From NCBI GenBank assembly GCA_903855135.1, contig CAINYB010000006.1, positions 29,631-93,630 of the forward strand: a DNA stretch of 64,000 nucleotides, given 5' to 3'. A model generated the notes under the pieces. The model worked only from the letters and a program-made list of their open reading frames with translations, was not told where the DNA came from and ran no database searches. The DNA comes from an uncultured bacterium. Its GTDB lineage: Bacteria; Patescibacteriota; Patescibacteriia; UBA1558; GWA2-36-10. Positions 12,786 through 60,821 of the stretch are shown here, in pieces; position 1 is the stretch's first letter, and each line of letters starts with the position of its first letter. A program made the position numbers and the translations under genes.

Positions 12786-14516
12786 TTAAAATTTTATTAC
12801 TTCTCCTGGCTGAATAATATTTTGCTCTTCTTCGGCTTGATCTTGGCGAAGAATCTCTGGCTTAGCCTTTAGAGCTTCAGCTAAAGAAACAAACTCTTCT
12901 TTTTTATCATCTCTATCATAGTTCGGCACTATTTTTATACTAGAAGGTGGTGGAATTTTACCAGACTTAGCTAAATCTAAACAATTTTTGCAATAAACCG
13001 CTTTGCTTGGATCTGGATCAAAATTAATCTCTGCTTCTGAACCACAAAAAGAACAGTTTATTTTATGTTTAATATTTTTTATACTTTTCTTTGATCCGTG
13101 TTCATCACGGCTTAGTTTTTCTTGTTTTTTTCTATCGCCTGCACGTCTATTCTCTACTTTTTTAGCAGACTGTGTCCCACCAGAAGGCGTGATAGCAGCA
13201 GAAGAACTCTCTTTTTTCTCACTTGTTTTTTCGTCTTTATTTTCACTCCAGCGCATAATCTTTTCTTCTATTTCTTCTCTGGGACTAGCATAACGTTCTC
13301 GTGAGACCCTAATCACTTTATCTCTAACTTCTTTATCACTTGGTTTGATATCTATCGGCGGTAAAGTAGTGGCCGAGAAGGCTTCAGAAGCTACGCCGTC
13401 GATCATGAGTTTTAAATAAATCTGATATTTTGGTAAATTGACTAAATTTTCTTGCGTGAATTGTGGAAAAAACTCTTTTTCTAAAGCTTCGGCATCTACC
13501 GCACCAACTCTAAAAGAAACTATCGTGCCCACATTACCAAAAATAGCAGCTTGAACTTTTTCATCTACCTGCTCAATGTATTGGTGGGCAATTGTTAAGT
13601 CTAGACGATATTTTCTAGCTTCTGATAAAATATTAGCAAATGATTCTGTGGCAAAGTTTTGAAACTCATCGACATAAAGAAAAAAATCTTTACGTTCAGT
13701 TTCTGGAATATTCACTCGACTCATAGCCGCGAGCTGGATCTTAGTAATCATCATCGCCCCCAATAAAGCTGAATTATCTTCACCGACTCTACCTTTAGCT
13801 AAGTTTAATAACAAAATTTTCTGATTATCCATCACTTCCCTCATAGTAAAAGAAGATTTTACTTGGCCTAAAATATTTCTGATCAAAGCTGAAGACAAGA
13901 ATCTGCCAACCTTATTTTGAATCGGAGCGATAGCCTCACTTTGAAATCTATCTGGATATTTAGCATATTCCTCTACCCAAAAAGCTTTGACCACTGGATC
14001 AGATAATTTATCTACTACTTTATTACGAAAATTTTTGTCCACCAACATCCTCATGATGCCAAGCAAAGTAGAACCCGGATACTCCAGTAAAGCCGAAATA
14101 GCATGGTGCAAAACATATTCCAAACGAGGACCCCAAGAATCAGCCCAAATCTTTTTGAAAACACCGATCAAACCGGAAACTACCAAATGTCTTTCTGACT
14201 CGTCGACACTTTCTAACACATTAAAAGCAATGGGGAAATCTAAATCTGAAGGATTAAAATAAATCACATCATTGATTCTATTTGCCGGAATAAAATCAAC
14301 GACTTTTTCTACTAAATCGCCATGTGGATCAATCACGCAGACGCCGTGTCCAGCATGAATATCTTGGATGATCATATTTTCCTGCAAAACTGATTTACCC
14401 ATACCAGTTTTACCAATGATGTACATATGTCGACGACGATCATCGGTTTTGATACCAAACTTTACTTCTGAATTACGAAAGTTTGTTTTACCAAAAAAGT
14501 TAATATTTTGATTCAT
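12786..14516 (-). CDS. TrwB/VirD4/HerA-type P-loop ATPase domain protein (split form) with C-terminal CxxC-x17-CxxC zinc ribbon
   Basis: RRRHMYIIGKTGMGKS Walker A with upstream His; VCVIDPHGD; Walker B FFLYVDEFQNF; AHQ motif; tail CSFCGSEAEINFDPDPSKAVYCKNC. Paralog of the C-terminal half of 25146..27593. Confidence 0.65.
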   Translation of the reverse strand: MNQNINFFGKTNFRNSEVKFGIKTDDRRRHMYIIGKTGMGKSVLQENMIIQDIHAGHGVCVIDPHGDLVEKVVDFIPANRINDVIYFNPSDLDFPIAFNVLESVDESERHLVVSGLIGVFKKIWADSWGPRLEYVLHHAISALLEYPGSTLLGIMRMLVDKNFRNKVVDKLSDPVVKAFWVEEYAKYPDRFQSEAIAPIQNKVGRFLSSALIRNILGQVKSSFTMREVMDNQKILLLNLAKGRVGEDNSALLGAMMITKIQLAAMSRVNIPETERKDFFLYVDEFQNFATESFANILSEARKYRLDLTIAHQYIEQVDEKVQAAIFGNVGTIVSFRVGAVDAEALEKEFFPQFTQENLVNLPKYQIYLKLMIDGVASEAFSATTLPPIDIKPSDKEVRDKVIRVSRERYASPREEIEEKIMRWSENKDEKTSEKKESSSAAITPSGGTQSAKKVENRRAGDRKKQEKLSRDEHGSKKSIKNIKHKINCSFCGSEAEINFDPDPSKAVYCKNCLDLAKSGKIPPPSSIKIVPNYDRDDKKEEFVSLAEALKAKPEILRQDQAEEEQNIIQPGEVIKF

Positions 14517-14521: not shown

Positions 14522-16021
14522 TTATTCGATTGGTAAATTAGATGGTGCCTCAGCTTTTGTGCTAGCTAATCTAGCTGGCTCTTTGGTGCTTTTAGCTTTT
14601 GCAAATTTATCTTCAAAATAATTATTATCTATATCCACATTAAAAGCTGGTTTTTTTAATTGCGCCATTAAAGCTTCTTTTTCTGACGAAACATTATCGC
14701 TAAAACCAGCAATCGGTAAAGAGCTTGGAGCTTCAGATTTTTTAACTTCCGTACGATGCAAAAGCGGCGTGCGTACTTCCATACCAGGGAAATGCCATAA
14801 ACTAGCTAGCTCTTCAATATTTAAAATAAAAGATTTGTAGCCCATTGCACCGCTACGACTCTTGCAAGCTCTGATGATATTTTCTCGACGACGATTATTA
14901 CGATATTTAGTAAACCAATAGTTAGTTGAAGTTTTAGTTTTAGGATCTGGTTTAAAACTATTTAAATCTAAGGTAGAAAATTGTTTAATAGCTCCAAAGA
15001 CAGAAGATATCACTCTGGGTGGAGAAAAATCTTCTTTAGGGGAGATATAAGCCAAACGAATTTTACACTCGAAACCTATCTTACTAGCCTTATTATTAAT
15101 CGCTTCTAAAATATTTTTTTCGCCTGGCGTCAAATGCAACATCATGCTTGGCATGTCTTCTTTTTTCTTTTCTTTTGATTCTTTCCAAAGAGGATAGACA
15201 AACTCACCTAAATTATCAAGCGTATTCATAAAAACATCCACTGCCTGATTACCTTTTGAGGCTGGTTTTGGCGCTGCTTTCTTACCGGCTATTTTATAAG
15301 CCATTTTTTCCGAATTTGCTAGCCATTCTACGCCAGTTGGTTTGACCATGATTTGAAACCAAACTTGTTCACCAACATGAATTTTACTCATGGTTTCTAG
15401 CAAAGCTGCTAAAGGATCTTTATACTCACCAGAAACCTTATCTTCAAAAGCTGGGTAAGTACGAATCGGTAAAGCATCTGATTTTACCGGTACTATTTCT
15501 GTGCCCCAGACATTATAGTTATCATCCGGAAATTTGGTTGGCGCCCAAGTCGTATAATCCTCTACTTCAGTGATTTCGGCATCTGGGTATTGGGAATAAA
15601 TCGCACTTTCTACCACATCCCTATGTTGGGTAGGAGTACGCACCAAAAATTGCACATAACCGTCAATACTCACAATTTCAAAAGAAAAGGCAAGTTGAAA
15701 TTGCCCTTTAACATACATATCAACATTATTCAAGTTAGCATGAGCACCGGAAACTGTCGAAAATAAACCCTCAACCGCTTTAGGTGTTTGTTCATGGTCT
15801 TTTGGTATATCTACCGCTAATAAAGTAAATTTTATGCCCGAAAACCATTTGTCTTGTTTAAGCATTAGCCAAACTTGATAGCCTTGAGTAATAAAAAGAT
15901 AAGCAAAAAGTATCCAAGCACCATGGATAAAAATATACCACATCGCTGCTTCAGGACCATTAGAAACCGCATTCAATAAATCAGTTAAATCAATAACTAA
16001 ATTTAAAAACTCTATTTGCAT
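14522..16021 (-). CDS. Membrane-anchored N-domain partner of the split ATPase; homologous to the N-terminal half of 25146..27593
   Basis: TM helix followed by segments alignable to the fused paralog (..FSFEIVSIDGYVQFLV..YPDAEITEVEDY.. versus ..FSLEIVATSTEINFYA..YPKVYFEEISDY..) and the shared linker LNIEELASLWHFPG / LNAEEMISMVHLPL. Confidence 0.5.
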   Translation of the reverse strand: MQIEFLNLVIDLTDLLNAVSNGPEAAMWYIFIHGAWILFAYLFITQGYQVWLMLKQDKWFSGIKFTLLAVDIPKDHEQTPKAVEGLFSTVSGAHANLNNVDMYVKGQFQLAFSFEIVSIDGYVQFLVRTPTQHRDVVESAIYSQYPDAEITEVEDYTTWAPTKFPDDNYNVWGTEIVPVKSDALPIRTYPAFEDKVSGEYKDPLAALLETMSKIHVGEQVWFQIMVKPTGVEWLANSEKMAYKIAGKKAAPKPASKGNQAVDVFMNTLDNLGEFVYPLWKESKEKKKEDMPSMMLHLTPGEKNILEAINNKASKIGFECKIRLAYISPKEDFSPPRVISSVFGAIKQFSTLDLNSFKPDPKTKTSTNYWFTKYRNNRRRENIIRACKSRSGAMGYKSFILNIEELASLWHFPGMEVRTPLLHRTEVKKSEAPSSLPIAGFSDNVSSEKEALMAQLKKPAFNVDIDNNYFEDKFAKAKSTKEPARLASTKAEAPSNLPIE

Positions 16022-16258: not shown

Positions 16259-17362
16259 TTAGTTAGTTTTTAAGAAATATCTACCTTTTTCATCGCGACC
16301 AAAACGATCTTTATTCATCAAAGCTAAGGTAATAGTAGTCTCTTTGATTAAGCGTTTCTTTAATACTTCAGCGACAATTTCTTTTTTAGATAATGATCTA
16401 TCAGTATTTTTCAAAATCTCCGCAATCACATCAGCGACTACACCTGGTTTAAAGCCCCATTCTTTAAGGGCATAAATACCACGACCAACTAAAACATATT
16501 TGTCATCCAAGATTAATTCATTGTGAATAGTAGCCGGATAAGCTTTACGGGTATCAAAAGTGCGATCATTGATGATGTTAGCGATTTCTGTAAAGTGTAA
16601 TGGCTTAGCTTCTTTTTTCAAAACAATATAAATCTTATCATTCATACGTTTTGGACTGATGCTTGGCCAATGATTTAAACCCCATTCTTGATAAGGATTA
16701 TCTTTGATCTTTTTGGTAATAAACAAAAAGTTTACTACTACTTTATCAGTCAAATCGTCATTGGAGACAAAAAAGTCAGCCTCAGAAATCTTATTAATCA
16801 ACTCATCTAAAGTCAAAGGCTCTTCTTCTTTGCTTAATAGATCAACAATTTTGTTGACTACTTCATCAAAAAAGTCTAAAGAAGCTTCTGGAGTTTTCCA
16901 AAAATCATGTACTTCTTTATTGGCTCTGACAAAATGAAAACGATGATTCAAAAGTTGACTTAAAATAAAGTTAATCGCGGCTTTATTACTTGAGCTTGCA
17001 CCCGGCACTAACAATAATTCTTTAATCAAGTTTTCTTCTGACATCATGCCACCGTGCTCAGCCAAAATAGCATTAGCAATATCCTCGATCTTCTTTAATA
17101 AGTTTTGATCAAAGTTTTTGCTAATTTTTTTCAGCGAACTGTTTTCAATTTGACGCACACGTTCACGAGTGATTTGGTATAGTTTACCAATATCTTCTAA
17201 AGTCTTTTTTTCTACTCCAGATAAACCGTGACGCATTTTTAAAATCTCTCTTTCACGTTCAGAAAGCAAAGACAACAGTTCTTCAACTGTTTGAGTCGGA
17301 TTAAATTCGGCTAAATGGGACAACTGTTGAGCAGTCATTACTTGGTCTAAAATTGAACTCAT
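16259..17362 (-). CDS. Putative transcription regulator: N-terminal sigma-70 region-4-like HTH plus C-terminal HARE-HTH-like winged helix
   Basis: N-terminus LSEREREILKMRHGL..KTLEDIGKLYQITRERVRQIENSSLKKI is a region-4 signature; C-terminus HFTEIANII...YVLVGRGIYALKEWG matches the HARE-HTH pattern (RVGRG.F.L+EW). Confidence 0.5.
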   Translation of the reverse strand: MSSILDQVMTAQQLSHLAEFNPTQTVEELLSLLSEREREILKMRHGLSGVEKKTLEDIGKLYQITRERVRQIENSSLKKISKNFDQNLLKKIEDIANAILAEHGGMMSEENLIKELLLVPGASSSNKAAINFILSQLLNHRFHFVRANKEVHDFWKTPEASLDFFDEVVNKIVDLLSKEEEPLTLDELINKISEADFFVSNDDLTDKVVVNFLFITKKIKDNPYQEWGLNHWPSISPKRMNDKIYIVLKKEAKPLHFTEIANIINDRTFDTRKAYPATIHNELILDDKYVLVGRGIYALKEWGFKPGVVADVIAEILKNTDRSLSKKEIVAEVLKKRLIKETTITLALMNKDRFGRDEKGRYFLKTN

Positions 17363-21676: not shown

Positions 21677-21750
21677 TCGGGGATCGTCTAATGGTAGGAC
21701 AACAGGTTCTGGTCCTGTTTATTGGGGTTCGAATCCCTATCCCCGAGCCA
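21677..21750 (+). tRNA. tRNA-Gln (anticodon CUG), 74 nt with encoded CCA
   Basis: Hand-folded cloverleaf: 7-bp acceptor tcgggga/tccccga with U1-A72 and G73 (bacterial Gln identity elements), D-loop with GG, anticodon stem acagg/cctgt, loop ttCTGgt, T-loop ttcgaat, 3' CCA. The reverse orientation fails because there is no U33. Confidence 0.8.
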
Positions 21751-22941: not shown

Positions 22942-24432
22942 TTAAACTACTTCACCACCAAAAACATCAACGGCGAGATCAACATCTTCTTCACTGCGTC
23001 CACGAAAGTTTTGGTGATTAGTAAGATAATTGCTATCAACTTTTAGCTCTATTTTTACGCTTCTTTTCAAAAGTTCATGAACAGCTTGCTTCAAGGCCAA
23101 GATAAACTCTGGTTTATTTATTTGCTCCGCATGAAAAGAATATTCAACACCTAAAAATAATTGCTCTTGATCTAAAGATAAAGGATGAGCGGTTTTTAAA
23201 AATGCTGCCACCGAATTATTTACTTTTTTTAAATTATCAACTATCTGGTCCCAATTATTTTTTAAAACTGCTAAATCTTGCTCTCCACCACTTACAGCTG
23301 CTGCTGGTGTTGACGCTGTGCTAACTTTAGTATTTTCTGCTTCGGTCAATAAAAACTCCACACAAGCCAGCTCAAGCGGTAGCTGATCAATCATCGCATA
23401 GTGACGTTGATTCGTTTTAGTCAAAACAATGTTTAATAAACGATGTAAATCACTTAATTCAAAACCATCGCCTTGATTTTTTAATAAGTCTCTAAAACTA
23501 TCATCAAAATCTCGCAAATAATCAGCCCCTAAGATCTTATAAAGCATAGCGTGACGCAAGTATTCCAGTAAATCAGCGGTCAAAGTCTCTAGATCTACAC
23601 CTTCGTCAATAAGTTTATGGATTTGATTCAAAGCCGTGTTTAAATTACGCATGCGTAAAGCCGCTACAAAATCATCGATTTCTTGCCAATTGTTACGTGG
23701 TAAAACTAGCGAAGCTAATTCATCATCAACTTGGCCATCAGCCAAAGAAATGATTTGACCAAGCAGTGACTCGGCATCACGCAAACAACCATCCGAACGA
23801 CGAGCAATTTGCCAAAGCAAAGTTTCGGCCATGGTCACTTTTTCCCACTCAATAATCTCACTTAATCTTTTGACAATATCCGCACTAGGTATTTTTTTAA
23901 AATCAAATCTTTGACAACGGGAAATAATAGTTTCTGGCACTTTATGAATTTCTGTAGTAGCTAAAATAAAAATAACTTTTTTTGGTGGTTCCTCTAAAGT
24001 TTTTAATAAAGCATTAAAAGCTGGCTTAGAAAGCATGTGGACTTCGTCGATCACAAAAACTTTATAGCTTCCTACTTCAAAAGCTGGGACATAAGAATTG
24101 GCAATGATATTTTCCCGGACATTTTCCACGCCAGTATGAGAAGCGGCATCGATCTCGATAATATCCATGGATTGGTTATTCAAGTTTGCCTGACAATTAT
24201 GACATTCATTACATGGCTCCGTCGAGTTAGCAGTTTTATTTTGACAGTTCAAAGAACGCGCAAAAAGACGGGCCAAAGTAGTTTTGCCCGTACCGCGAGG
24301 TCCAACAAACAAATAAGCATGTGCCAAGTTGCCAGATAAGACTTCATTTTGCAGGGTCACTTTGATCGGTCTTTGTCCAACTACTTCAGCAAATGTTTTC
24401 GGACGATATTTTCGGTAAATGACTTCTGACAT
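22942..24432 (-). CDS. dnaX: DNA polymerase III subunit gamma/tau
   Basis: KYRPKTFAEVVGQ, Walker A GPRGTGKTT, zinc module CNECHNCQ. Confidence 0.9.
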   Translation of the reverse strand: MSEVIYRKYRPKTFAEVVGQRPIKVTLQNEVLSGNLAHAYLFVGPRGTGKTTLARLFARSLNCQNKTANSTEPCNECHNCQANLNNQSMDIIEIDAASHTGVENVRENIIANSYVPAFEVGSYKVFVIDEVHMLSKPAFNALLKTLEEPPKKVIFILATTEIHKVPETIISRCQRFDFKKIPSADIVKRLSEIIEWEKVTMAETLLWQIARRSDGCLRDAESLLGQIISLADGQVDDELASLVLPRNNWQEIDDFVAALRMRNLNTALNQIHKLIDEGVDLETLTADLLEYLRHAMLYKILGADYLRDFDDSFRDLLKNQGDGFELSDLHRLLNIVLTKTNQRHYAMIDQLPLELACVEFLLTEAENTKVSTASTPAAAVSGGEQDLAVLKNNWDQIVDNLKKVNNSVAAFLKTAHPLSLDQEQLFLGVEYSFHAEQINKPEFILALKQAVHELLKRSVKIELKVDSNYLTNHQNFRGRSEEDVDLAVDVFGGEVV

Positions 24433-24443: not shown

Positions 24444-25040
24444 TTATAAATTAATCTCTAAATCTTGCGGATCACCCGAATGCGGATGAGCATATTTAGC
24501 TTTGATGATATTTTCAACGGCGGCCCATTCAGAATCGCCAGCTTTTGGCGTCAAAATCACTACTTCATCCCCTTCTTCACCCTTAAAGTAAGTAATACTA
24601 GCCAATAAAACTTTAAATACTTTTTCACCAGCCAAAACCACGAAATCTCCACTTTCATTATCTTTGACTAGATGTCCGACTATCCGCTGTCTATCGACGG
24701 GAGAAATTTGTTTAAAAATGAAGGCGCCACTAGGATCGATGGTCAATTTCAACATATCACCTTCAACCAGCTTTGATTTTGAGGCATAATTGGCGGGTAC
24801 AGAATATTGCTTACCATCTGGTCCGATCATGACTTGGCCATTAAAAACACCTTCTATCACCAAGCCTTCATCTGACTGACCTTCAGCACCGAACTCTGCC
24901 GCTTTTAAACTATAGTCAACGGCTGATTTGCCCTTTTTGCCACTTAATTCGCCTAAAATTAGTTTAGTTTTCTTTAGCTCTAGCTCTAAATTGTAGACCA
25001 AAGACTCCAATTCTTTGATTGTTTTTAAATTATTCGCCAT
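24444..25040 (-). CDS. Hypothetical protein (coiled-coil N-terminus), start probably MANNLKT
   Basis: ORF without recognisable motif; sits between the fused ATPase and dnaX. Confidence 0.35.
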   Translation of the reverse strand: MANNLKTIKELESLVYNLELELKKTKLILGELSGKKGKSAVDYSLKAAEFGAEGQSDEGLVIEGVFNGQVMIGPDGKQYSVPANYASKSKLVEGDMLKLTIDPSGAFIFKQISPVDRQRIVGHLVKDNESGDFVVLAGEKVFKVLLASITYFKGEEGDEVVILTPKAGDSEWAAVENIIKAKYAHPHSGDPQDLEINL

Positions 25041-25123
25041 TTTTATTTTTATTTTATTTGTATTTAAAGAATAACATAAAAGCAACTCGTTTTCAAGAGC
25101 TGCTTTTGTCTAAAATTTATCCT

Positions 25124-25145
25124 GCTTCGCCGAATCGAGGCGAGC
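25124..25145 (-). terminator. GC hairpin gcttcgcc-gaatc-gaggcgagc abutting the stop of the fused ATPase gene
   Basis: 7-8 bp GC stem directly 3' of the stop at 25146. Confidence 0.5.
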
Positions 25146-27593
25146 TTAAAAACTAAAACGTTTCTCAATTTCCGCTTCTACACCAGCTCTGTCTTTACCG
25201 TATTTGAGACTAGATAATTCTTTCAAAGCTTGAGCTAATTCAAAGTTTCCTTTTTCCGCCATAATCGGATTAAAGTTAAAAGCCGGAGCAGCCGTGTTAT
25301 CGATCAATAATCTGACGTAACAAGTATATTTGGGCATATTGACCAAATCATATTCCGAAACCACTGGCGCCATTTGTTTAGCAATGATCTCTGCATCTTC
25401 GACACCGATACGATAAGAAATGATGGTACCAACATTACCAAAGATAGCATCTCGTACACGCGTGTCACCATTTTTGACTAGCTGGGCTAAAAACTGATGG
25501 GCCAAGATAAGGTCTAGACGATATTTTCTGGCTTCCGATAAAATAATAGCGATACTATCAGTAATAAAGTTTTGAAACTCATCAATGTATAAATAAAAAT
25601 CTTTGCGTTCATTTTCTGGGATATTCACTCGACTCATAGCCGCAAATAATAGTTTACCGATGACAATCATACCAAGCAAGCTACTATTTATTTCTCCGAT
25701 TTTACCTTTGGATAGATTTAATAAAATTATTTTATTCGTATCCATGGCTTCCCGAAAATTAAAAGCACTTTTACTTTGCGCAATTATCGGACGGATCAAA
25801 TCATTAGCAATAAATGGCGTCAATTTACTAGTGATATAAGGCACCATGTTGGCCAATGATGCTTCACCACCAGCTTTTTGCGCTTCTTTTTCCCAAAAGT
25901 CTTTGACGAAATGATTTTTTACTGTCAGTAATTTTTGTTTTCTAAAATCTTCATCAGCCAAAACTTTAGGGATTTCGAGTAGCGTTGCACCAGAATCTTT
26001 ATCATCCATGATGAGTAACATCGCATTACGCATATATTGCTCAAACATCGGACCACCGGTGGCTTTCAAATCATAGAGTTTGTCAAAGATCGCGATCATT
26101 TCATTGATCACAAAAGTTTTTTGCTCATCAGTGTCATATTCTAGCATGTTCATGCCTAATGGCCGGCTAGAATTTGCTGGATCAAACAAAATCACATCTC
26201 CTGCTCTTTCTTTCGGAATATGTGCTAAAACTGACTCGATGCTATCACCATGTGGATCAATCACGCAGACACCTTTGCCGGCTTTGATATCCTGGATAAT
26301 CAAACTTTCTTGTAAAACTGATTTACCCACACCAGTCTGACCGATGATGTACATATGTCGACGACGATCAGCATCTTTGATACGCACGAGAGTCTCTGCA
26401 CCTCTAAAAGAGCTCTTGCCTAAAACTAAGCCTTCTGTAGCCATATTTTGTGGTGGCGCTGCTTTACTGGCCTCTAGCCAGGCAATGCGTGGTGTTTCAG
26501 TCGTAGGCAAAGGCAAATGAACCATTGAGATCATTTCTTCTGCATTGAGCAAAATACGAATATTAGTATCATAATGACGATAAATAAAATCTTTGATTAA
26601 TTTGTCTGGATTTTTTGGTAATAAAGCTTTAAAAACATTACCAAATTCATAAATATTATATTGGGCATAGCTATTTAAGATGTCAGCCAAAATAGCATTT
26701 GACCTTTCTTTACTTGGGCTTGAACAAATCACTCTGATATTGACATCTAGTCCGGGCTTAGAGCTTTTTTCTTGCAACATCTTGCCAGCTTCTTGTTCCA
26801 TGGCTGAAGTCTGATGTTTATCTTTATCTCCTAAAACACCTTGATCATTATCTTTTTTGGTAGAAAAAAAACTTAATAAAAAACTAAAAGCTTTACCTAA
26901 AAAATTTAAAACACCGGTTCCATAACTTTCAGTAATCGCTGCTTTAAAAGTCATGCCTTTGGCCATATTAGCTACTATTTTGTGAGCACGATCATGCCAT
27001 TTTTTTGGTGCAGATTTAAAGACATATTGCACTGCAGCTGATTCATGTTCATTTAGCTTACTTAAAGCATTGGTGATACTTTCCAAAGGATCATTGTCAA
27101 AACTTTTGTAAGTTTTGACTGGTAAAGCGATATCACTCTGTATTTTTAAAACACCAGCTTTTATCACACTATTTGCTTCAAAAATATTATAATCAGATAT
27201 TTCTTCAAAATATACTTTTGGATAAACAGTCTGTATTTGTTGAACAAAAAAGGTTTTATATTTTGGTGGCATCGCAGCGTAAAAATTTATCTCTGTAGAA
27301 GTAGCAACTATTTCTAAAGAAAAAACTTCACTTAGTTTAAACCAAGATTTTTCTGCTTTTAAACCAGCTAAAGAATAAAAAAAATTTTCTACTTGTCCCA
27401 AACTAGAGATGATAAAATCTTTTGTTAGCTGTTCTCTTTCACTTTTGGTGTAGCGCGGTATCTTAATCAAAATAATGTCTAAAGATAAATCTTTATTTAT
27501 TCTTTTTTTATACCAAACAAATAAAAACAAGGCAATTAAACAAAAAACAACCAATATAGCTACTAGTAAAATTGTCTGAATATCAATAGTCAT
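25146..27593 (-). CDS. Membrane-anchored TrwB/VirD4/HerA-type P-loop ATPase, fused form (N-domain + ATPase), 815 aa
   Basis: N-terminal TM helix; RRRHMYIIGQTGVGKS; VCVIDPHGD; Walker B FYLYIDEFQNF; AHQ. Its N- and C-halves align respectively with ORFs 14522..16021 and 12786..14516. Confidence 0.7.
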   Translation of the reverse strand: MTIDIQTILLVAILVVFCLIALFLFVWYKKRINKDLSLDIILIKIPRYTKSEREQLTKDFIISSLGQVENFFYSLAGLKAEKSWFKLSEVFSLEIVATSTEINFYAAMPPKYKTFFVQQIQTVYPKVYFEEISDYNIFEANSVIKAGVLKIQSDIALPVKTYKSFDNDPLESITNALSKLNEHESAAVQYVFKSAPKKWHDRAHKIVANMAKGMTFKAAITESYGTGVLNFLGKAFSFLLSFFSTKKDNDQGVLGDKDKHQTSAMEQEAGKMLQEKSSKPGLDVNIRVICSSPSKERSNAILADILNSYAQYNIYEFGNVFKALLPKNPDKLIKDFIYRHYDTNIRILLNAEEMISMVHLPLPTTETPRIAWLEASKAAPPQNMATEGLVLGKSSFRGAETLVRIKDADRRRHMYIIGQTGVGKSVLQESLIIQDIKAGKGVCVIDPHGDSIESVLAHIPKERAGDVILFDPANSSRPLGMNMLEYDTDEQKTFVINEMIAIFDKLYDLKATGGPMFEQYMRNAMLLIMDDKDSGATLLEIPKVLADEDFRKQKLLTVKNHFVKDFWEKEAQKAGGEASLANMVPYITSKLTPFIANDLIRPIIAQSKSAFNFREAMDTNKIILLNLSKGKIGEINSSLLGMIVIGKLLFAAMSRVNIPENERKDFYLYIDEFQNFITDSIAIILSEARKYRLDLILAHQFLAQLVKNGDTRVRDAIFGNVGTIISYRIGVEDAEIIAKQMAPVVSEYDLVNMPKYTCYVRLLIDNTAAPAFNFNPIMAEKGNFELAQALKELSSLKYGKDRAGVEAEIEKRFSF

Positions 27594-27599
27594 AATAAT

Positions 27600-28085
27600 T
27601 TAAGTATTTTTGTTTTTAGTTAAGGCAAAAATCTCATCCGCCTTAATTTTCGCTTCTTGCTCTAAGAAATATTTATTCACTTGCGGAATGATGCGTAGCC
27701 ACTCCACGATTAAGCTCAAAATCTTTTTTAATTTTGCTTTACCAGTTTTTAAGAGTTCATTTATTTTAAGGGCAGTTTCCTCACCTTTTTGCTTAAACTT
27801 GATTTGTGTAGCACTATCTAAAGACAAAAAAACTTTTTCCATATCTTTGGACAAGATTTCTTCTACTTTTTTAAGCTCCCAGCCCTCTTCTACTACTGGC
27901 CTTGTCGGCTGACTAGCGATATTAGCCAAAACAGCAGCCGTTTGATTTGCTTCAGTGCTTTTTTCTGTGACTGTTTCTGGCTGTTGTTCTAAAACTGCGC
28001 TAGTATCTTTTTGCTCAACAGCTAAATTAGCCTGTTGCTCAGGAGTGCTACTTTGCTCAATGATTAATTTTTCATCTATTACCAT
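27600..28085 (-). CDS. Acidic hypothetical protein (161 aa) upstream of the fused ATPase
   Basis: ORF only; Q/E/T-rich N-terminus, helical C-terminus. Confidence 0.35.
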   Translation of the reverse strand: MVIDEKLIIEQSSTPEQQANLAVEQKDTSAVLEQQPETVTEKSTEANQTAAVLANIASQPTRPVVEEGWELKKVEEILSKDMEKVFLSLDSATQIKFKQKGEETALKINELLKTGKAKLKKILSLIVEWLRIIPQVNKYFLEQEAKIKADEIFALTKNKNT

Positions 28086-28096
28086 ATGCGTCTTTA

Positions 28097-28534
28097 TTAT
28101 AACAAGTTTCTAAGTTTTTGTAAAAAAATATTTCTATTTTTTAAATTAGTTAAATAAATCTTTTTTTCTCCGATTATCAAACACAAATTAAAAATAGCAT
28201 GTTTATAAACTTGATCAATATCTTCTAAAAATATCTCGTGAAATATTTTATATTCTTTGTGTTGCCAAACTAAAAAAATAATACGCTGATTGGTCAGTAG
28301 ATAACAATCTTCACTATGTAAAATCAGCTGACTAATGAGTAACAATAAAAATAAAATAAGACTAAGCCATAAAGCTAGTCCCTGTCTATTTGAAGATGTC
28401 AGTGGATAGAGCAAAAAAAATGCGAGAGGCAAAAAAACAAAGACTAATAAATACAACAAAGCTCTTTTCTGACGTTTTTTGGCCAAATAACGCAAAATTT
28501 CATTTTTACCTAAAAATTTGCTAAAATTATACAT
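28097..28534 (-). CDS. Small membrane protein, possible bacterial PH-like (YdbS/YdbT-type) fold
   Basis: Two adjacent TM helices followed by an approximately 70-aa soluble domain; assignment by topology only. Confidence 0.3.
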   Translation of the reverse strand: MYNFSKFLGKNEILRYLAKKRQKRALLYLLVFVFLPLAFFLLYPLTSSNRQGLALWLSLILFLLLLISQLILHSEDCYLLTNQRIIFLVWQHKEYKIFHEIFLEDIDQVYKHAIFNLCLIIGEKKIYLTNLKNRNIFLQKLRNLL

Positions 28535-39150: not shown

Positions 39151-39633
39151 AAGGCTTAAATTAGCCTCATAAGCCGAATTCTGTTCTCCAGCAAGCTGGA
39201 GTGATGATCATCTATCTAGGACTATGATTGCCCATAGCCTCAAGCAAGCTACCCGATCCCGCTTAGCGGGACCCTATTTGCTCTTGCACCGAATAGAGTT
39301 TAGCTCTTTTAGCTTGTCACCAAGCTAACGGGTCAGCTCATTATCTGACCATTTCACCCTTATCCTTCGATTCGGCCTTGCGGTCTCACTCAGGAAGGAA
39401 TACTCTCTGTTCAACTTGTCCTGACCACTTAGTCGCCCAAATGGCCGGTTGTCGTTAACAACTATCCTCCATTTAAAAATGGAAAATGGTGTTCGGACTT
39501 TATCCTCCCTCCTTCGCTGTCGCTACGCGCCAGCTACGGACGGGCAGGCCCCGCTAAATTGTAGGGCTTGCCGTACGAAGCTCAAACGCAGTGAGAGCGA
39601 AGGACGGCGATCATCTCGGCTAATTTAAACCTT
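39151..39633 (-). ncRNA. rnpB: RNase P RNA (bacterial type), not in ORF track
   Basis: Minus-strand transcript contains GGAGGAUAAAGUCCGAACACC (CR-I/P4 5' strand), AAGGGUGAAAUGGUCAGAUAAUGAGCUGACC (CR-II/P10.1-P12 pattern) and ACAGAAUUCGGCUUAU (CR-IV/P4 3' strand). P4 shows compensatory GG to AA and CC to UU changes relative to E. coli. P1 helix GGUUUAAAUUAGCC/GGCUAAUUUAAGCC closes the molecule. Lies in a 750-nt ORF-free gap of elevated GC. Confidence 0.8.
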
Positions 39634-40955: not shown

Positions 40956-41969
40956 CTATTTAGCAGATAAAATACTACGTTTATAAGACTCTAGATTTTC
41001 TAAAGCAATACCAGTACCACGAGCTACACAGAGCAAAGCGTCATCAGCGGTGTAGGCTGGCACACCAGTAGCTTGGGATAAAAGTTTATCCATATTACGC
41101 AAAAGCGCTGTACCACCGGACAAAACCATGCCTTTGTCCATAATATCAGCTGACAACTCTGGTGGTGTCTGATATAGCACCGATTTTACGGCCGAAATCA
41201 AGCCCTGGAGCTCGTTTTGTAAGGCTTCGGTCACATCATCTGAACTGACTGTAATCGTGCGTGGTAGGCCAGTGATCATATCACGGCCTTTGACATCCAT
41301 AAATAATTTTTCTTCTTTTGGTAAAAATTGAGCTGAACCGATTCTTATTTTGACTGCTTCTGCACTGCTTTCACCGATAGCGAGATTATACTTCTTCTTA
41401 ATATACTCACCAATAGCTGTATCATATTTATTACCACCGATTTTCACTGAAGTGTTAGCCACGATACCGCCCAAAGAAATAACCGCAATTTCTGAAGTGC
41501 CACCACCCATATCGACGATCATATGACCAGAAGCCGAACCGATCGGAATATCAGCCCCGATAGCCGCCGCAATTGGTTCACGAATAATATAAGCTGCTTT
41601 AGCACCAGCATTCAAAGTGGCGTCAATAACAGCTCTGCGCTCAGTAGAAGTAATACCAGCTGGTACGGCGATCATCACTTCAGGACGAAATAGTTTCATA
41701 CCACCAACCGCTTTGTTGATAAAATACCTAAGCATGCTTTCGGTAGTTTTATAGTCAGCGATCACACCATTTTTTAGAGGTCGAGAAGCAATGATTGAAT
41801 CTGGCGTACGACCGATCATATCTTTAGCTTCATCACCAACGGCTAAAACTTTTTTATCAAAAACCGAAATCGCCACCACACTTGGCTCATTAATAACAAT
41901 ACCTCGTTTAGGAATATAAACTAAGGTATAAGTCGTGCCCAAATCAATCCCGATTTTCTTAATAAACAT
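40956..41969 (-). CDS. mreB: Rod shape-determining protein MreB (copy 1)
   Basis: IGIDLGTTYTLVY, actin-fold phosphate motifs, DMGGGTSEIAVISLGG. Confidence 0.85.
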   Translation of the reverse strand: MFIKKIGIDLGTTYTLVYIPKRGIVINEPSVVAISVFDKKVLAVGDEAKDMIGRTPDSIIASRPLKNGVIADYKTTESMLRYFINKAVGGMKLFRPEVMIAVPAGITSTERRAVIDATLNAGAKAAYIIREPIAAAIGADIPIGSASGHMIVDMGGGTSEIAVISLGGIVANTSVKIGGNKYDTAIGEYIKKKYNLAIGESSAEAVKIRIGSAQFLPKEEKLFMDVKGRDMITGLPRTITVSSDDVTEALQNELQGLISAVKSVLYQTPPELSADIMDKGMVLSGGTALLRNMDKLLSQATGVPAYTADDALLCVARGTGIALENLESYKRSILSAK

Positions 41970-42425
41970 TTATTTGATTTCTAAAATCTTATATTTTATT
42001 TTACCAGCCGGCAAATCAACTAAAAATTCTTCGTGCAATCTTTTATTGACAAAAGCTTGGCCCAATGGTGATTCTACCGAGATTTTGCCGTTACTTGGAT
42101 CCGCTTCAGTGGAACCAACGATAGTGAATTCCAAAACTTGTCCTTCTCTGTCAACAACGATAGTATTACCGACATTGATTTGATCATCATCGTTTTTGTC
42201 AGCCACGACAGCAGTTTTGATCAAATTTTCTAAATTTAAAATTCGACCTTCAGTAAAGGCTTGCTCATCTTTGGCTTCTTGATATTCAGCGTTTTCTGAT
42301 AAGTCACCAAACTCTTTAGCAGTTTTGATACGATCAGACACTTGCTTTCTTTTTTCGGTTTTTAGATATTCTAGCTCTGCTTTGAGCTTCTCCAAACCTT
42401 CTGGTGTTACTATTGTGCTATTCAT
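41970..42425 (-). CDS. greA: Transcription elongation factor GreA
   Basis: 151 aa; coiled-coil N-domain with acidic tip (DLSENAEY) and FKBP-like C-domain. Confidence 0.85.
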   Translation of the reverse strand: MNSTIVTPEGLEKLKAELEYLKTEKRKQVSDRIKTAKEFGDLSENAEYQEAKDEQAFTEGRILNLENLIKTAVVADKNDDDQINVGNTIVVDREGQVLEFTIVGSTEADPSNGKISVESPLGQAFVNKRLHEEFLVDLPAGKIKYKILEIK

Positions 42426-42558: not shown

Positions 42559-44457
42559 CTACCTATTAAAATACCATTCCATAAACTGCCTTGAAACTGT
42601 GACTGCTAAACCGGTGTCTCCACCTTCTTCCACCAAAACTGCCATCACAATCTGCGGATTATCATAAGGTGCAAAGCTAGCAAACCAAGAATGTGGCGTT
42701 TTATTGTGATTAAACTGGGCGGTACCAGTCTTACCGGCCACCGGCACTTTGACTGATTGTAAGCTTTTAGCCGTACCAATAACCACTGTTTCTCGCAAAC
42801 CCTGCCGTATAATATCTAAATTATTCTGACTAAGCAAATTTTCTAAAATAACTGGTGTAGCTTTTTCCTCTAAAGTTGTTTCTTGCTTAATGCCTTTTAA
42901 TAAATGAGGCTGCCAAGCTTTGCCGCTGGCAAAATAAGCCATTTCCACCGCTACTTGCAAAGGAGTCCCTAATAAATAGCCCTGGCCAATAGATAGATTA
43001 TAAGTATCTCCTAAATACCAGCGATCATTAAAAGTTTTTTCTTTCCAAGCTTGGCTTGGTAAAAAACCCTCTACTTCGTTAGTCAGGTCAATCTTAGTAG
43101 GAGAGCCAAAACCAAACTTTTTTGCATATTGGAGAATTTTTTCCATACCTAAACCTTTATCTAGCCACTGATTATTAGCGCCACCAATAGTATAAAAAAA
43201 TGTATTGACTGAATCAGCCAAGGCCCATTTGATATCTGTCTTACCATGGCCAGCTGGACGCCAATCAGGAAAAAAATTGTTACCAATTTGCACACCGCCA
43301 GTACTCTGGACAGTGAAATTCTGATCAATAATTTTTTCTTCCAGAGCTGCCCCCGCAACCACTGGCTTAAATACTGAGCCAAAAGGATATTCCCCAGAAA
43401 CTACGCGATTTAATAGTGGCGTATTAGGATCAGACATTAAAGTGCTGTATTCTTCTTTTTTTAAAGCTGAAGTAAAAATATTATTATCAAAACTAGGCAA
43501 ACTCACCATCGCTAATACTCCACCATCTTTGGCATCCAAAACTACTGCCGCCATTTTATTTTTACCATTACTTGCCGCATTTTTGGCCATCACGCTATAA
43601 AGCTGACTTTGCGCCGCCGCATCAATGGTCAAGACTATGTCTGTGCCATCTTTTGGCTCTTGCCAACCAATACTATTTTTAGCTCGATTTAAAGCATCAA
43701 CTTCGATCTGACGAAAACCGTCTTGTCCACGTAAAACATTTTCATAAATATATTCTAAGCCAGTCTTACCCAAACGATCATTATAATTATAAGCAGGATT
43801 TTCCGCTAAATCTTTTTCGCTCACGACTCCCAAATATCCTAGCTCATGCGATAAACCAAACTGCGGAAAATATTCACGACGTGGCTCATAAGATATTTCG
43901 ATACTATGATTATTTTCCGCTGCTAGCATCAGCTGAATCGCTTTTTCATAAGTAACATTTTCAAACACCAAAACTTTTTCTCCTTTTTTATAATTTTTTA
44001 AACTTTCTTCAATATCAGTTGCTGGCACGGCTAAAACTTCTGTTAATTTTTGCAAAGTTTCTTGCTTTTTATTTTCGTCAGCCCAATTATCTGGCCATAA
44101 ATAAAGAAAAAAATGAGAAACATTTTTTACCAGCTGCACACCATTACGATCATAGATTAAACCGCGGTTGGCCTTGACTATCTCATGACGAATACGATTA
44201 CCTTCTGCCCGATTACGATAAGTGTCACCTTTGATAATTTGTAAATAAAAAGCCCTACTTAATAAAATAAATAAAACCGCTAATAATACTTTAAATAAAC
44301 GACGACTTTGACTTTCAGCAAAAAAACGTCCTAAAGTCTGAGCACTTTTTTCCCAAACAAAATCAAGATAGTCACCGCTATGCTGATTTTCAGAAAAACC
44401 TTTTAGCTTGCTATCCTTAATAGATCCTTCTTGTATTTTAAAAGGATCGTTTTTCAT
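42559..44457 (-). CDS. mrdA: Penicillin-binding protein 2 (peptidoglycan D,D-transpeptidase MrdA)
   Basis: N-terminal TM and PBP dimerisation domain; SxxK (SVFK) and KTGT motifs. Confidence 0.85.
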   Translation of the reverse strand: MKNDPFKIQEGSIKDSKLKGFSENQHSGDYLDFVWEKSAQTLGRFFAESQSRRLFKVLLAVLFILLSRAFYLQIIKGDTYRNRAEGNRIRHEIVKANRGLIYDRNGVQLVKNVSHFFLYLWPDNWADENKKQETLQKLTEVLAVPATDIEESLKNYKKGEKVLVFENVTYEKAIQLMLAAENNHSIEISYEPRREYFPQFGLSHELGYLGVVSEKDLAENPAYNYNDRLGKTGLEYIYENVLRGQDGFRQIEVDALNRAKNSIGWQEPKDGTDIVLTIDAAAQSQLYSVMAKNAASNGKNKMAAVVLDAKDGGVLAMVSLPSFDNNIFTSALKKEEYSTLMSDPNTPLLNRVVSGEYPFGSVFKPVVAGAALEEKIIDQNFTVQSTGGVQIGNNFFPDWRPAGHGKTDIKWALADSVNTFFYTIGGANNQWLDKGLGMEKILQYAKKFGFGSPTKIDLTNEVEGFLPSQAWKEKTFNDRWYLGDTYNLSIGQGYLLGTPLQVAVEMAYFASGKAWQPHLLKGIKQETTLEEKATPVILENLLSQNNLDIIRQGLRETVVIGTAKSLQSVKVPVAGKTGTAQFNHNKTPHSWFASFAPYDNPQIVMAVLVEEGGDTGLAVTVSRQFMEWYFNR

Positions 44458-44935
44458 GATGTTTTTTTAGCCATAAATTAAAATATAAAATATAGACAAA
44501 AACAATGATAAAAGTATTGATAAAAATTATTTTAAATATTTGCCAAAATGTTATCCAAGAAAATAGATAAATTGACCAATGACTAATAGAATAAAGTAGC
44601 CACAATACTAACCAAAAAATTAACTGACCTAAAAAAGTCAAAAAAATAATCGTACCAGTATTTTTAGAAGTAAAAATGGTTAGTTGCAAAGTACTTAAAA
44701 TAAATAACACCAATAAAAAACTAAAAGTATGTAAACCAAAACTAGCAGAAAAACTATCAATAAATAAACCAGCTAATATAGCTATCGGATAATAAATCCA
44801 AGGATTTTCAAAAATATAATAAACTAAAATTAGCATAATTAAAAATGGTTCTAGTAAACTCCAAGAACCAACATTGACCAAAGAGTAAACCGTGTGTGTC
44901 AAGATAAATAAAATTAATAAGGCTAAATACTTCAT
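44438..44935 (-). CDS. mreD: Rod shape-determining protein MreD
   Basis: 165 aa, 5 TM; position between mreC and PBP2. Confidence 0.6.
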   Translation of the reverse strand: MKYLALLILFILTHTVYSLVNVGSWSLLEPFLIMLILVYYIFENPWIYYPIAILAGLFIDSFSASFGLHTFSFLLVLFILSTLQLTIFTSKNTGTIIFLTFLGQLIFWLVLWLLYSISHWSIYLFSWITFWQIFKIIFINTFIIVFVYILYFNLWLKKHHEKRSF

Positions 44936-45672
44936 AAAGAGACAATGATTGCTACCAAAGACAAAGTGCTATAATCCAATAATGGAGAAACAGTGGCTTG
45001 TTTAAATAATTCTTCTTGAGAAAATTTTACTTCTTCTACAGAACCTATCACTAGGCCAGCTGGTATCTTTTCATTTAGACGTGAAGTCAAGACTAAATCA
45101 CCTTTATTAATCGCTTGTTCTTGAGGTACATAGCTTAAATTCATCCCTAGACCTAGTGAACCAGTCAAAACACCAGCGACATTTTGACTATCGCCGATAT
45201 TGACCGCTATTTTGCTCAAACCATCAGTCAATAAACGCAGCACCGAGGCATCAGCCCTGACTTCAATAATTTTGCCGATAATCACACCATCGTTGACCAC
45301 GACTGCTTGGCCAGGCACTACACCGTCAGCCTCACCCGCATCAATCACGAGTAGATTTTGATTTAGTAAATCCCTACTCAAAATATTAGCTACTTTCAAA
45401 TCATAATTAGCTTTAGACTTTAAATTTAGCAAAGCTCGTAAGCTATCATTTTCTTGAGCTAAAGCTTGTAGCCTAGTATTTTGACTTAATAATTCTTGAT
45501 AAGAACTTTCAAGATTATTTGGTGGATTTAATAATTGATTGACAGTTTTTTGTGGTTGTGGCAATAAACGCAGCAAAACACCAAAATCAAAAAAACGGCC
45601 AGCTTTGAAAAATATCAAAAGTAAGGCCACCAAAAAAAATAATAAAAAAATCTGTACGTTTCGTCTTAACAT
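44932..45672 (-). CDS. mreC: Rod shape-determining protein MreC
   Basis: N-terminal TM, coiled coil, beta-rich C-domain; ATGA overlap with mreD. Confidence 0.75.
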   Translation of the reverse strand: MLRRNVQIFLLFFLVALLLIFFKAGRFFDFGVLLRLLPQPQKTVNQLLNPPNNLESSYQELLSQNTRLQALAQENDSLRALLNLKSKANYDLKVANILSRDLLNQNLLVIDAGEADGVVPGQAVVVNDGVIIGKIIEVRADASVLRLLTDGLSKIAVNIGDSQNVAGVLTGSLGLGMNLSYVPQEQAINKGDLVLTSRLNEKIPAGLVIGSVEEVKFSQEELFKQATVSPLLDYSTLSLVAIIVSL

Positions 45673-45680: not shown

Positions 45681-46733
45681 TTAATTAAGACCTAAATCTT
45701 TAGTTGAAGGCAATAAAATTTCTCTTAAATTATCCAAATCAGCTAATACTTTACCAGTGCCACGTACCACGGCAGTCAAAGGATCGTCAGCGACATGGAC
45801 TGGCATTTTTGTTTCTTGAGCAATCATCACATCAAGACCTCTTAATAAGGCTCCACCACCAGTCAAATACAAACCTTTTTCGTATAAATCAGACACTAAT
45901 TCTGGTGGAGTACTTTCAATGGTAGTTTTGATGTTGTCAACGATTAATTTAATCGGTTTAGCGATCGCTTCTCTGATATTGGCATCGGTGATACGAATTT
46001 CTTTTGGCAAACCAGTCAACAAATCACGACCGCGCATCGTGGTCTCCATTGGTTTGTCTAGCAGTAAGACAGAAGCAATCTGAATCTTGATTTTTTCAGC
46101 GGTCCGTTCACCTAATAAAATATTAAATTTATCACGAGCGTATTGGGTGATAGCTTCGTTTAGTTTATCGCCAGCTAATTTCAAAGATTTCCAAGAAACT
46201 ACTCCACCCAAAGAAATCACAGCAATTTCTGTGGTGCCACCGCCCATATCTACCACCATACTGGCTGTAGCCTCTAAAATAGGCAAACCAGCCCCGATAG
46301 CAGCAGCAATCGGTTCTTCTATCAAAAGTACCTCTGAAGCACCCGCACCCATGACAGCGTCCTCCACCGCCTTACGCTCCACTTCAGTGATGTCCAAAGG
46401 TATAGCGATCATCACTCTGGGACGTGGCATAAAAGTCATGCTTTCTTTATGTACTTTATTGATAAAATGTTTAATCATTTTTTCACTGACTTCAAAATCA
46501 GAAATAACTCCATCAACCAAAGGTCTGACGACATTGATATGTAATGGAGTTTTACCAAGCATAACTTTAGCATCATCACCAACGGCTACTATTTTATCCG
46601 TTCTAGTATTGATAGCCACCACACTCGGCTCATTGATAACAATACCTTGATCTTTGACATACACCAAAGTATTGGCCGTACCAAGGTCAATACCCATATC
46701 TTTAGAAAATTGTCCTAAAAATTTCTTAAACAT
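45681..46733 (-). CDS. mreB: Rod shape-determining protein MreB (copy 2)
   Basis: GIDLGTANTLVYV, DMGGGTTEIAVISLGG; distinct paralog of 40956..41969. Confidence 0.85.
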   Translation of the reverse strand: MFKKFLGQFSKDMGIDLGTANTLVYVKDQGIVINEPSVVAINTRTDKIVAVGDDAKVMLGKTPLHINVVRPLVDGVISDFEVSEKMIKHFINKVHKESMTFMPRPRVMIAIPLDITEVERKAVEDAVMGAGASEVLLIEEPIAAAIGAGLPILEATASMVVDMGGGTTEIAVISLGGVVSWKSLKLAGDKLNEAITQYARDKFNILLGERTAEKIKIQIASVLLLDKPMETTMRGRDLLTGLPKEIRITDANIREAIAKPIKLIVDNIKTTIESTPPELVSDLYEKGLYLTGGGALLRGLDVMIAQETKMPVHVADDPLTAVVRGTGKVLADLDNLREILLPSTKDLGLN

Positions 46734-60341: not shown

Positions 60342-60821
60342 TTATTTTTTCTTTTTAGCTACTTTTTTAACTTCTTTTTTAGCAGCTTTAGGTTTTTCTT
60401 CTACTTCATCAAATACTATGTCCATATCTTTTTCTTTAGTCTTTGCTTTAGCAGGAGCTTTACTAGCTTGTAAAAGATTTAAAATTTGATCCAGCTTTTT
60501 GTTTAAACCATTGATAGCCTCGGTAACTTGACTATTATCATGACCGCCAGCAGAAGAACGACTTGATCTAGTATCGTTTTTCTTAAAACAATCATTACAA
60601 TAAACTGGTTTACCACTTGTTGGACGAAATGGTACTTCACAATCAGAGCCACAACCATCGCATACTGCTTGATGCATTTCTGCTGGGCGACTATCTCGAT
60701 CTCGACGATCTCCGCCAAAACCTCTATCTCTGCCACCGCCAAAACCACCACGGTTAGAGCCTCTAAAACCGCCTCTATCTCTGCCACCGCCAGGTCTTCT
60801 ATCTCGATTAAAATTTCCCAT
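60342..60821 (-). CDS. RGG/RG-rich protein with CxxC-x17-CxxC zinc ribbon and lysine-rich C-tail
   Basis: N-terminal RGG-type low-complexity region; zinc ribbon VCDGCGSDCEVPFRPTSGKPVYCNDCF clearly homologous to the tail of ORF 12786..14516; C-terminal KAKTKEK...KKKK. Confidence 0.5.
   Translation of the reverse strand: MGNFNRDRRPGGGRDRGGFRGSNRGGFGGGRDRGFGGDRRDRDSRPAEMHQAVCDGCGSDCEVPFRPTSGKPVYCNDCFKKNDTRSSRSSAGGHDNSQVTEAINGLNKKLDQILNLLQASKAPAKAKTKEKDMDIVFDEVEEKPKAAKKEVKKVAKKKK

Follow-up and report, generated by a model that had tools for sequence, protein, structure and literature searches.

The 815-amino-acid (aa) ATPase encoded in a 64,000-nucleotide stretch of DNA from an uncultured bacterium of the Patescibacteria (the candidate phyla radiation, CPR; assembly GCA_903855135.1, contig CAINYB010000006.1, positions 29,631 to 93,630; hereafter the window) is a hybrid protein of the type IV secretion system (T4SS) ATPase superfamily, in which a VirB4-like N-terminal domain is joined to a motor resembling that of type IV coupling proteins (T4CPs). 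Its gene, together with two conserved small partner genes, is part of the core chromosome of the Patescibacteria and lies remote from secretion-system genes. We hold with middling confidence that this ATPase is a membrane-anchored translocase from the part of the FtsK-HerA superfamily that contains VirB4 and the T4CPs, and the core of a gene cassette that moves a polymer either independently of a T4SS or in loose linkage with one. Neither this hybrid architecture nor the pair of partner genes seems to have been described so far. An earlier prediction made for this DNA (the original prediction) had listed open reading frames (ORFs) of 815, 161 and 145 aa in the same orientation, and all of them were present on the minus strand, whereas the T4SS ATPase superfamily membership, with its T4CP-like motor and VirB4-like N-domain, had gone unrecognized. 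The parts of the ATPase gene are as follows.

25146-27593, minus strand: the 815-aa ATPase ORF (from the ORF list)
26424..27593, minus strand: N-terminal half, a transmembrane (TM) helix (residues 5-31) and DUF8128, with a fold like the VirB4 N-terminal domain (NTD)
25146..26423, minus strand: C-terminal half, a T4CP-like P-loop motor (Pfam, NCBIfam and PDB profile search)

The N-terminal half comprises a single TM helix followed by the DUF8128 domain of about 350 folded residues, and its VirB4-NTD-like fold was recovered by two methods. PF26449/DUF8128 was present in the precomputed annotation of the 815-aa protein, of a separate 499-aa ORF in the window and of all 120 listed homologs; a local Pfam scan of the 815-aa and 499-aa proteins, unlike the precomputed annotation, returned no DUF8128 match, and PF03135 did not match the 815-aa protein. 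A hydrophobic segment at residues 225-243 was considered as a second TM helix and not counted, as that part of the model is of low confidence and helical or loop-like, and the matching stretch of the 499-aa protein, read from the alignment, did not look hydrophobic.

The homology to T4CP motors spans about 350 residues. Matches above the Pfam gathering threshold (GA) on the C-terminal half were T4SS-DNA_transf (PF02534, 31.9 bits; GA, 20.1), TrwB_AAD_bind (PF10412, 31.3 bits; GA, 20.5), TraG-D_C (PF12696, 26.2 bits; GA, 22) and DUF87/HerA (31.5 bits). TraD/VirD4-like models of NCBIfam matched far under their cut-offs (TIGR03743, 53.5 vs 366; TIGR03754, 37 vs 647; NF045973, 26.9 vs 250), and a PDB search with the family profile gave weak matches to TrwB (1e9r; E, 1e-4) and DotL. 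VirB4 models also scored below their cut-offs on the protein (TIGR00929, 17.2 vs 643; AAA_10, 14.6 vs 27.5), as did FtsK_SpoIIIE (PF01580, 13.1 bits vs a cut-off of 24), the match of which was limited to the Walker A region. The motor motifs, namely Walker A (G418-S425), Walker B (D671-E672) and SEARKYxLxLxxAHQ (residues 686-700), were invariant across 15 homologs of 52-88% identity. A role in defense was considered and rejected, since PADLOC gave only weak matches at the level of mad8 and HerA ATPases, without a defense context.

With the T4CPs (VirD4/TrwB/TraD), the 815-aa protein thus shares a homologous P-loop motor, an N-terminal membrane anchor, the Walker A and B motifs and TraG-D_C-type motifs. 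Unlike T4CPs, in which a short two-TM anchor leads straight into the motor, it carries one TM helix and the VirB4-NTD-like domain of about 350 aa; unlike them, too, its gene lies in a cassette without nearby relaxase or T4SS genes, with partners of its own (a 161-aa and an OB-fold protein, described below) and a conserved linkage to dnaX. The fold of the N-terminal domain resembles that of the VirB4 NTD, whereas the ATPase half, unlike VirB4/TrwK, fits T4CP models better than VirB4 models, and, unlike at VirB4 loci, genes for VirB3, VirB6 and VirB8 were not found in the window. The plasmid-borne split pair TrsD and TrsE of pGO1/pSK41 was compared by sequence: TrsD of pSK41 showed no similarity to the fused family in hhalign, TrsE aligned over 44 columns around Walker A only, and the T4CP of pSK41, TrsK, aligned weakly over 297 columns.

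The genes and signals surrounding the ATPase gene are listed here.

27600-28085, minus strand: 161-aa partner, a disordered acidic N-half and a conserved basic helical C-half
28096..28124, minus strand: promoter-like element TTTACA-17 nt-TGTTATAAT, 11/12 consensus positions plus a TG extension
24444-25040, minus strand: 198-aa partner (213 aa from a TTG, 198 from the first ATG), modelled as an N-terminal coiled-coil helix, a second helix and two tandem oligonucleotide/oligosaccharide-binding (OB)-fold barrels
25078-25107, minus strand: terminator-like hairpin of 11 bp with a U-rich tail, between the ATPase and 198-aa genes
22942-24432, minus strand: dnaX (clamp-loader tau/gamma), the last conserved member of the array (Pfam)
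28097-28534, minus strand: 145-aa two-TM protein with a weakly bacterial-PH-like C-half

A scan with one genome per species recovered at least 590 species with a relative of the fused ATPase, and the best 80 loci (48-88% identity), which include Komeili-, Nomura-, Uhr-, Falkow-, Magasanik-, Kerfeld- and Veblenbacteria, among others, were analyzed. By this comparison, the 161-aa gene is a true partner of the fused ATPase: at 65 of the 74 informative species loci, a homolog is the next gene upstream in the same orientation, at a spacing of -4 to +40 nt, with a 4-nt overlap being common. The original prediction had named the 161-aa and 145-aa genes together as dedicated small partners of the ATPase, dependent on their conservation beside it in related genomes; the former passed this test, and the latter, confined to the 14 closest genomes, did not. 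The 161-aa protein had also been described as acidic, which agrees with its isoelectric point (pI) of 5.28, although the acidity resides in the N-half (residues ~1-70; pI, 4.15) and the C-half is basic (residues ~71-161; pI, 9.55). Its family comprises 1,789 cluster representatives (50% identity) at an E value of ≤0.001; the best 150 members listed are stand-alone proteins of 116-210 aa, and F97, G101, W129, P134, N137 and the motif QEAKxKxD are invariant in the alignment. No match to the protein was found in Pfam, NCBIfam, PHROG, PADLOC or PDB, and a PDB search with the family profile returned nothing significant.

The start of the 161-aa gene coincides with a conserved promoter-like signal. 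In the window, the TTTACA-17-TGTTATAAT element lies within the 3' end of the 145-aa gene and stops 10 nt short of the 161-aa ATG. Among the relatives, 48 of 69 loci have an extended -10 motif (TGnTAnAnT) in front of an in-frame start codon of the homologous gene, mostly ending exactly 6 nt from it. The motif was infrequent (≤8%) at the other gene starts that served as controls (198-aa gene, 3/72; ATPase, 5/78; dnaX, 6/75) and had a background of 0.26 motifs per kb. A promoter at this start codon implies that the transcription unit begins there and that the 145-aa gene is outside the unit; judging from the spacing, the mRNA is probably leaderless or near-leaderless at the 161-aa start. In a Falkowbacteria-like subclade of 8 loci (L044, L046, L049, L052, L054, L061, L072 and L077), the place of the 161-aa gene is occupied by another conserved protein of ~85-96 aa (e.g., L044:9409-9684), unrelated in sequence to the 161-aa protein. 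Its single TM helix contains an LTVFLC motif, and the protein also has an amphipathic helix and a basic tail; an ~811-aa gene lies upstream of it.

The gene on the other side of the ATPase, which the original prediction had treated as a mere flanking hypothetical of 199 aa, is instead its most conserved partner. Of 77 loci, 72 encode a homolog of this 198-aa protein downstream of the ATPase, and in 67 the two genes are direct neighbors; at 64 of 66 informative loci, dnaX also lies no more than 3.1 kb from the ATPase on its downstream side. The modelled 198-aa protein has the five-stranded topology of an OB fold, and the top structural neighbors of its OB domains are all nucleic-acid binders; at the sequence level, neither Pfam nor NCBIfam gave a match (S1, CSD and SSB families), and a PDB sequence search with the family profile found nothing significant. 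Its disordered C-terminal tail (24444-24497, minus strand) ends in an acidic-hydrophobic tip, PQDLEINL, which takes the form D/E-D/E-L/F-D/E-I/L-x-L in near relatives and is reminiscent of the C-terminal tip of the single-stranded DNA-binding protein SSB, a binder of the clamp loader and other partners. This SSB-like tip (DDLEIxL) was rejected as a feature of the 198-aa family, as it is confined to near relatives and absent from many homologs.

Terminator-like hairpins were seen after the 198-aa gene at 30 of 67 loci, against 1.2 expected, and after the ATPase gene at a minority (8/67). This placement indicates that, in most lineages, the order is the 161-aa gene, the ATPase gene, the 198-aa gene, a terminator and then dnaX. 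In the window, the intergenic RNA between the ATPase and 198-aa genes (25041-25145) has a folding energy of -26.1 kcal/mol (z, -3.9), and a promoter-like element, TTGAAA-17-TGTTATTCT (25054-25085, minus strand), overlaps the hairpin at 25078-25107. No known RNA element was detected in the cassette with Rfam. The extended -10 variant TGTTATTCT occurs upstream of both the 198-aa gene and a sigma/HARE-HTH gene (upstream of 17362, minus strand), in each case 17 nt after TTGAAA or TTGACT, and sites of this type may represent a promoter class of this organism.

The 145-aa protein is a lineage-specific neighbor. Its description as a two-TM protein was confirmed by the two hydrophobic helices found both by computation and on reading the sequence; its homologs are restricted to the 14 closest genomes of the 80 related loci, and an iterated hidden Markov model search of these loci did not extend the family any further. 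In other clades, a different gene, often on the opposite strand, stands upstream of the 161-aa gene. The family model bPH_3 matched 8 of the 14 members below threshold (window protein, 18.3 bits vs a cut-off of 23; best member, E of 6e-4). Owing to this narrow distribution and its position upstream of the conserved promoter of the unit, the 145-aa protein was rejected as a partner of the family.

A second, split module of the same kind is encoded elsewhere in the window.

12786-14516, minus strand: split-paralog ATPase of 576 aa, T4CP-like, its C-terminal region carrying a K/E-rich linker and a treble-clef zinc finger (PF23477, 35 bits; TIGR04272)
14522-16021, minus strand: DUF8128 protein of 499 aa, which supplies the N-half in the split paralog (alignment; PF26449)
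16259..17362, minus strand: 367-aa Sigma70_r4 and HARE-HTH protein, conserved upstream neighbor of the split paralog (Pfam)

The original prediction had called the 815-aa ATPase a fused paralog of the 576-aa ATPase, with about 50% identity over the ATPase half. The paralogy held, and the identity was slightly lower at 46% over 422 residues (BLASTP of residues 391-809 against 8-420; 67% positives; E, 7e-124). The description as fused also proved apt: residues 13-399 align with the separate 499-aa ORF (23% identity; E, 3e-17), both sharing PF26449/DUF8128, and because the two halves thus align with the 499-aa and 576-aa ORFs, the 815-aa protein can be regarded as a fusion of the two parts of the split module. 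Among the motifs proposed to be shared, RRRHMYIIGxTGxGKS, VCVIDPHGD, FxLYxDEFQNF and ILSEARKYRLDLxxAHQ were found in both proteins, whereas MPKY is common only as PKY (NMPKY vs NLPKY).

An ancient duplication, as originally proposed, is borne out by the relationships among the ATPases. In a neighbor-joining tree of 410 ATPase columns, rooted on TrsK of pSK41, 79 fused and 81 split sequences were reciprocally monophyletic, with the phage homologs (see below) falling outside both groups; fused sequences shared identities of 0.55-1.0 with one another and split sequences 0.65-1.0, and comparisons across the two groups gave 0.37-0.50. Such separate clades imply that the duplication is old, as seen in these sequence samples, each consisting of the best 80 hits (the split sample being 80 metagenome loci of 54-89% identity). 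Sub-functionalization of the two paralogs, also part of the original proposal, is plausible, and a distinct conserved neighborhood surrounds each of them. In the metagenome loci, the split module consists of three conserved genes (the Sigma70_r4 and HARE-HTH protein, the DUF8128 protein and the ATPase): the DUF8128 gene lies directly upstream of the ATPase in most loci, and in most informative ones it is itself preceded by the gene for the 367-aa protein, which has an N-terminal Sigma70 region 4 and the HARE-HTH domain at residues 244-302. The arrangement is suggestive of a three-gene module in its own right. The C-terminal zinc finger of the 576-aa ATPase is lacking from the fused paralog, and the zinc-ribbon region is conserved in most relatives of the split ATPase. 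A treble-clef zinc finger of the same family (PF23477; E, 4e-17) also occurs in a stand-alone 159-aa protein of the window (60342-60821, minus strand).

Homologs of the 161-aa, 198-aa and 145-aa proteins were not found alongside the split module, in the window or in the 80 metagenome loci, and paralogs of these small proteins were absent from the rest of the window. Two disguised relationships were also considered and rejected with hhalign, which revealed no relationship of the 161-aa family to the 576-aa paralog or to the HARE-HTH protein and none of the 198-aa family to the C-terminal extension of the split ATPase. The extra elements of the split module are therefore not disguised homologs of the partners of the fused module.

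Relatives of the ATPase are also found in phages. PHROG 5156, a family of unknown function, matches residues 84-809 of the fused protein (E, 1e-76) and also matches the split ATPase and the 499-aa protein. The gp156 protein of Bacillus phage G has the same full-length architecture, a DUF8128-like N-half and a motor (23.5% identity over 92% of the query), and is encoded in this jumbo phage (85946-98198) with gp155 (VirB4-like; P-loop_TraG, AAA_10) and gp153 (TrbL/VirB6-like). SPO1-like phages carry the motor half (gp27.4), and an "ATPase domain protein" of Herelleviridae also belongs among the phage relatives. Unlike the Patescibacteria cassette, these homologs are phage-borne, and in YungSlug the homolog comes after genes for an M23 peptidase and for small membrane proteins. 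Homologs of the 161-aa and 198-aa partners were not matched in any PHROG family, and a scan of IMG/VR with chosen patterns gave no viral relatives.

The ATPase genes have a counterpart in the published record. In a set of 3,035 Patescibacteria genomes, Quinonero-Coronel et al. (2025; PMC12102498) counted 5,713 VirD4-type T4CP homologues, spread over 2,918 of the genomes (96%) and with only 148 of the homologues near virB4; VirB4 itself was present in 2,417 genomes (80%). The passages of that study cited here add that T4CP genes of other bacteria are often encoded apart from virB4 and that, in Southlakia, the T4CP homologue is non-essential, whereas the T4SS is essential; its authors suggest that the orphan T4CP homologues may have been "exapted for other functions," a possibility that in their words "cannot be ruled out." These orphan homologues and the genes described here are almost certainly the same, at about two VirD4-type hits per genome. 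On these figures, two ATPase modules are the norm for the phylum, so their co-occurrence in a tiny genome, which had been singled out as notable in the original prediction, conforms to what has been reported for Patescibacteria in those passages (PMC12102498). The same passages contain no N-terminal domain, fused and split families, 161-aa or OB-fold partners, dnaX linkage or promoter. Wang et al. (2023; PMC10633639) described the Southlakia T4SS cluster as lacking recognizable coupling or relaxase proteins. DUF8128 was not mentioned in the literature searched, and it appears that neither the hybrid fold nor the neighborhoods of both paralogs, their partners and the promoter had been described in that literature.

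The window has a GC content of about 35%, with almost every gene on one strand, and its nearest relative genome is that of Parcubacteria GW2011_GWA2_36_10; ENA metagenome contigs also contain this same DNA. Its content is largely of a housekeeping nature (SecA, AlaRS, MnmA, SecDF, DnaX, LepA, MurJ, MreB/C, PBP2, ProRS, RseP, holB and RecJ), and no T4SS or relaxase genes were found among the genes of the 64 kb. No T4SS or relaxase genes were noted in the near flanks of the 80 related loci either, where the flanking ORFs were compared with the window's own proteins only and not with T4SS models. Two MreB paralogs (40956-41969 and 45681-46733), MreC (44932-45672) and a PBP2-type transpeptidase (42559-44457), all on the minus strand, are clustered with GreA (41970-42425) interposed, forming a complete rod-shape set despite the reduced genome. 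An RNase P RNA of bacterial class A (39157-39557, minus strand; 156.7 bits) is also present, and tRNA-Gln(CTG) (21677-21750, plus strand) is the sole clear plus-strand gene of the window. GC skew was zero or negative in all 2-kb bins over the 64 kb, which fits a single replichore with co-oriented genes.

By analogy with its relatives, the fused ATPase probably functions in the translocation of a polymer, possibly DNA. The proposed cassette would read, from its putative leaderless promoter, through the 161-aa protein, the ATPase and the 198-aa protein, usually to a terminator, and then into dnaX. Like its T4CP and VirB4 relatives, the ATPase could assemble into a membrane-bound ring and use ATP to drive a polymer at the cytoplasmic membrane; DNA would be the most likely substrate, and single-stranded DNA would suit the OB-fold partner. 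The 198-aa protein may handle this substrate on the cytoplasmic side, and the 161-aa protein might act as an adaptor or regulator, with the 145-aa protein having no part in the machine. DNA is favored because the T4CP and FtsK relatives pump DNA, the partner has tandem OB folds, the array ends in dnaX and the sister module has a zinc ribbon and a helix-turn-helix (HTH) protein. The machine would be independent of a canonical T4SS channel or only loosely coupled to it, a view favored by the wider distribution of the family compared with VirB4 and by how rarely the two are linked.

Several observations weigh against this proposal. In the window's own clade, the 198-aa gene lies within 18 nt of dnaX, and the ATPase and 198-aa genes have a hairpin between them in the window itself, as they do in 5 of its 14 near relatives; such tight coupling to dnaX, together with the hairpin, means that the tie of the 198-aa protein may be partly to dnaX. 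The T4SS-like trio of phage G further implies that the family can work inside a T4SS-like set. The adjacency of gp156 to the VirB4-like gp155, near gp153, is likewise what would be expected if the ATPase were a coupling protein acting in trans on a T4SS encoded elsewhere, docking perhaps through its VirB4-like N-domain and with the small proteins as substrate adaptors. The T4CP-like motor, the occurrence of VirB4 in 80% of Patescibacteria genomes and the frequent separation of T4CP genes from virB4 in other bacteria (PMC12102498, as excerpted above) are consistent with this explanation, which we regard as having a minor though appreciable chance of being correct. In the same excerpts, however, about 500 more genomes have T4CP homologues than have VirB4 (2,918 vs 2,417), 148 of 5,713 homologues are near virB4, and the Southlakia homologue is dispensable whereas its T4SS is not; moreover, each genome has two paralogs, each in a conserved non-T4SS neighborhood, and neither T4SS nor relaxase genes accompany them in the window.

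The nature of the substrate bears on two further explanations. A protein or peptide translocase or unfoldase-like machine, with the 198-aa protein as an entry ring similar to the N-domains of PAN/Mpa and the 161-aa protein as an adaptor or substrate, seems unlikely, given that the top structural neighbors of the OB domains all bind nucleic acids, that the T4CP and FtsK relatives are DNA translocases, and that the dnaX linkage and the zinc finger and HTH protein of the paralog point to DNA. A housekeeping DNA pump similar to FtsK, which would segregate chromosomes or handle DNA at the membrane in step with replication, would accommodate the FtsK superfamily membership, the membrane anchor, the near-universal status as a core gene and the dnaX linkage in 64/66 loci; we consider it quite unlikely, since the FtsK_SpoIIIE score was 13 bits against a cut-off of 24, no DNA-recognition module resembling the gamma domain was seen, FtsK is mentioned in a study of the Saccharibacterium TM7x (PMC10768705), and, in the excerpts of PMC12102498, the Southlakia homologue is non-essential. 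It is very improbable that the small neighbors are passengers held in place by the frozen gene order of a reduced genome. This holds for the 145-aa gene, the genes of the compact Patescibacteria genomes stand in long co-directional runs, and dnaX itself has no obvious functional link to the ATPase, but the outer genes vary by clade (lepA, a 308-aa two-TM gene or an ~460-aa gene upstream, and varied genes past dnaX) while the 161-aa/ATPase/198-aa core remains intact, with 4-nt start/stop overlaps in many loci, a conserved promoter exactly at the 161-aa start and a terminator after the 198-aa gene.

Returning to the translocase proposal, its furthest extension would be that two autonomous, T4SS-independent membrane translocons built on hybrids of a VirB4 NTD and a T4CP motor are near-universal in Patescibacteria, the fused one, with an adaptor transcribed without a leader and a tandem-OB partner beside dnaX, moving DNA at or across the membrane. 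We regard this extension as doubtful; if true, it would amount to a minimal DNA-translocation system not yet described, which could serve host-derived DNA import, DNA export or replication-coupled handling, and the hybrid architecture could be a link between VirB4 and coupling proteins. The tiny genomes of this phylum still retain about two orphan coupling-protein-like ATPases (96% of genomes), a distribution wider than that of the T4SS itself on the figures excerpted from PMC12102498. The hybrid architecture bears on the relationship between VirB4 and the coupling proteins, and the anatomy, operon and sister module described here now make the role of these ATPases testable in cultivable Saccharibacteria.

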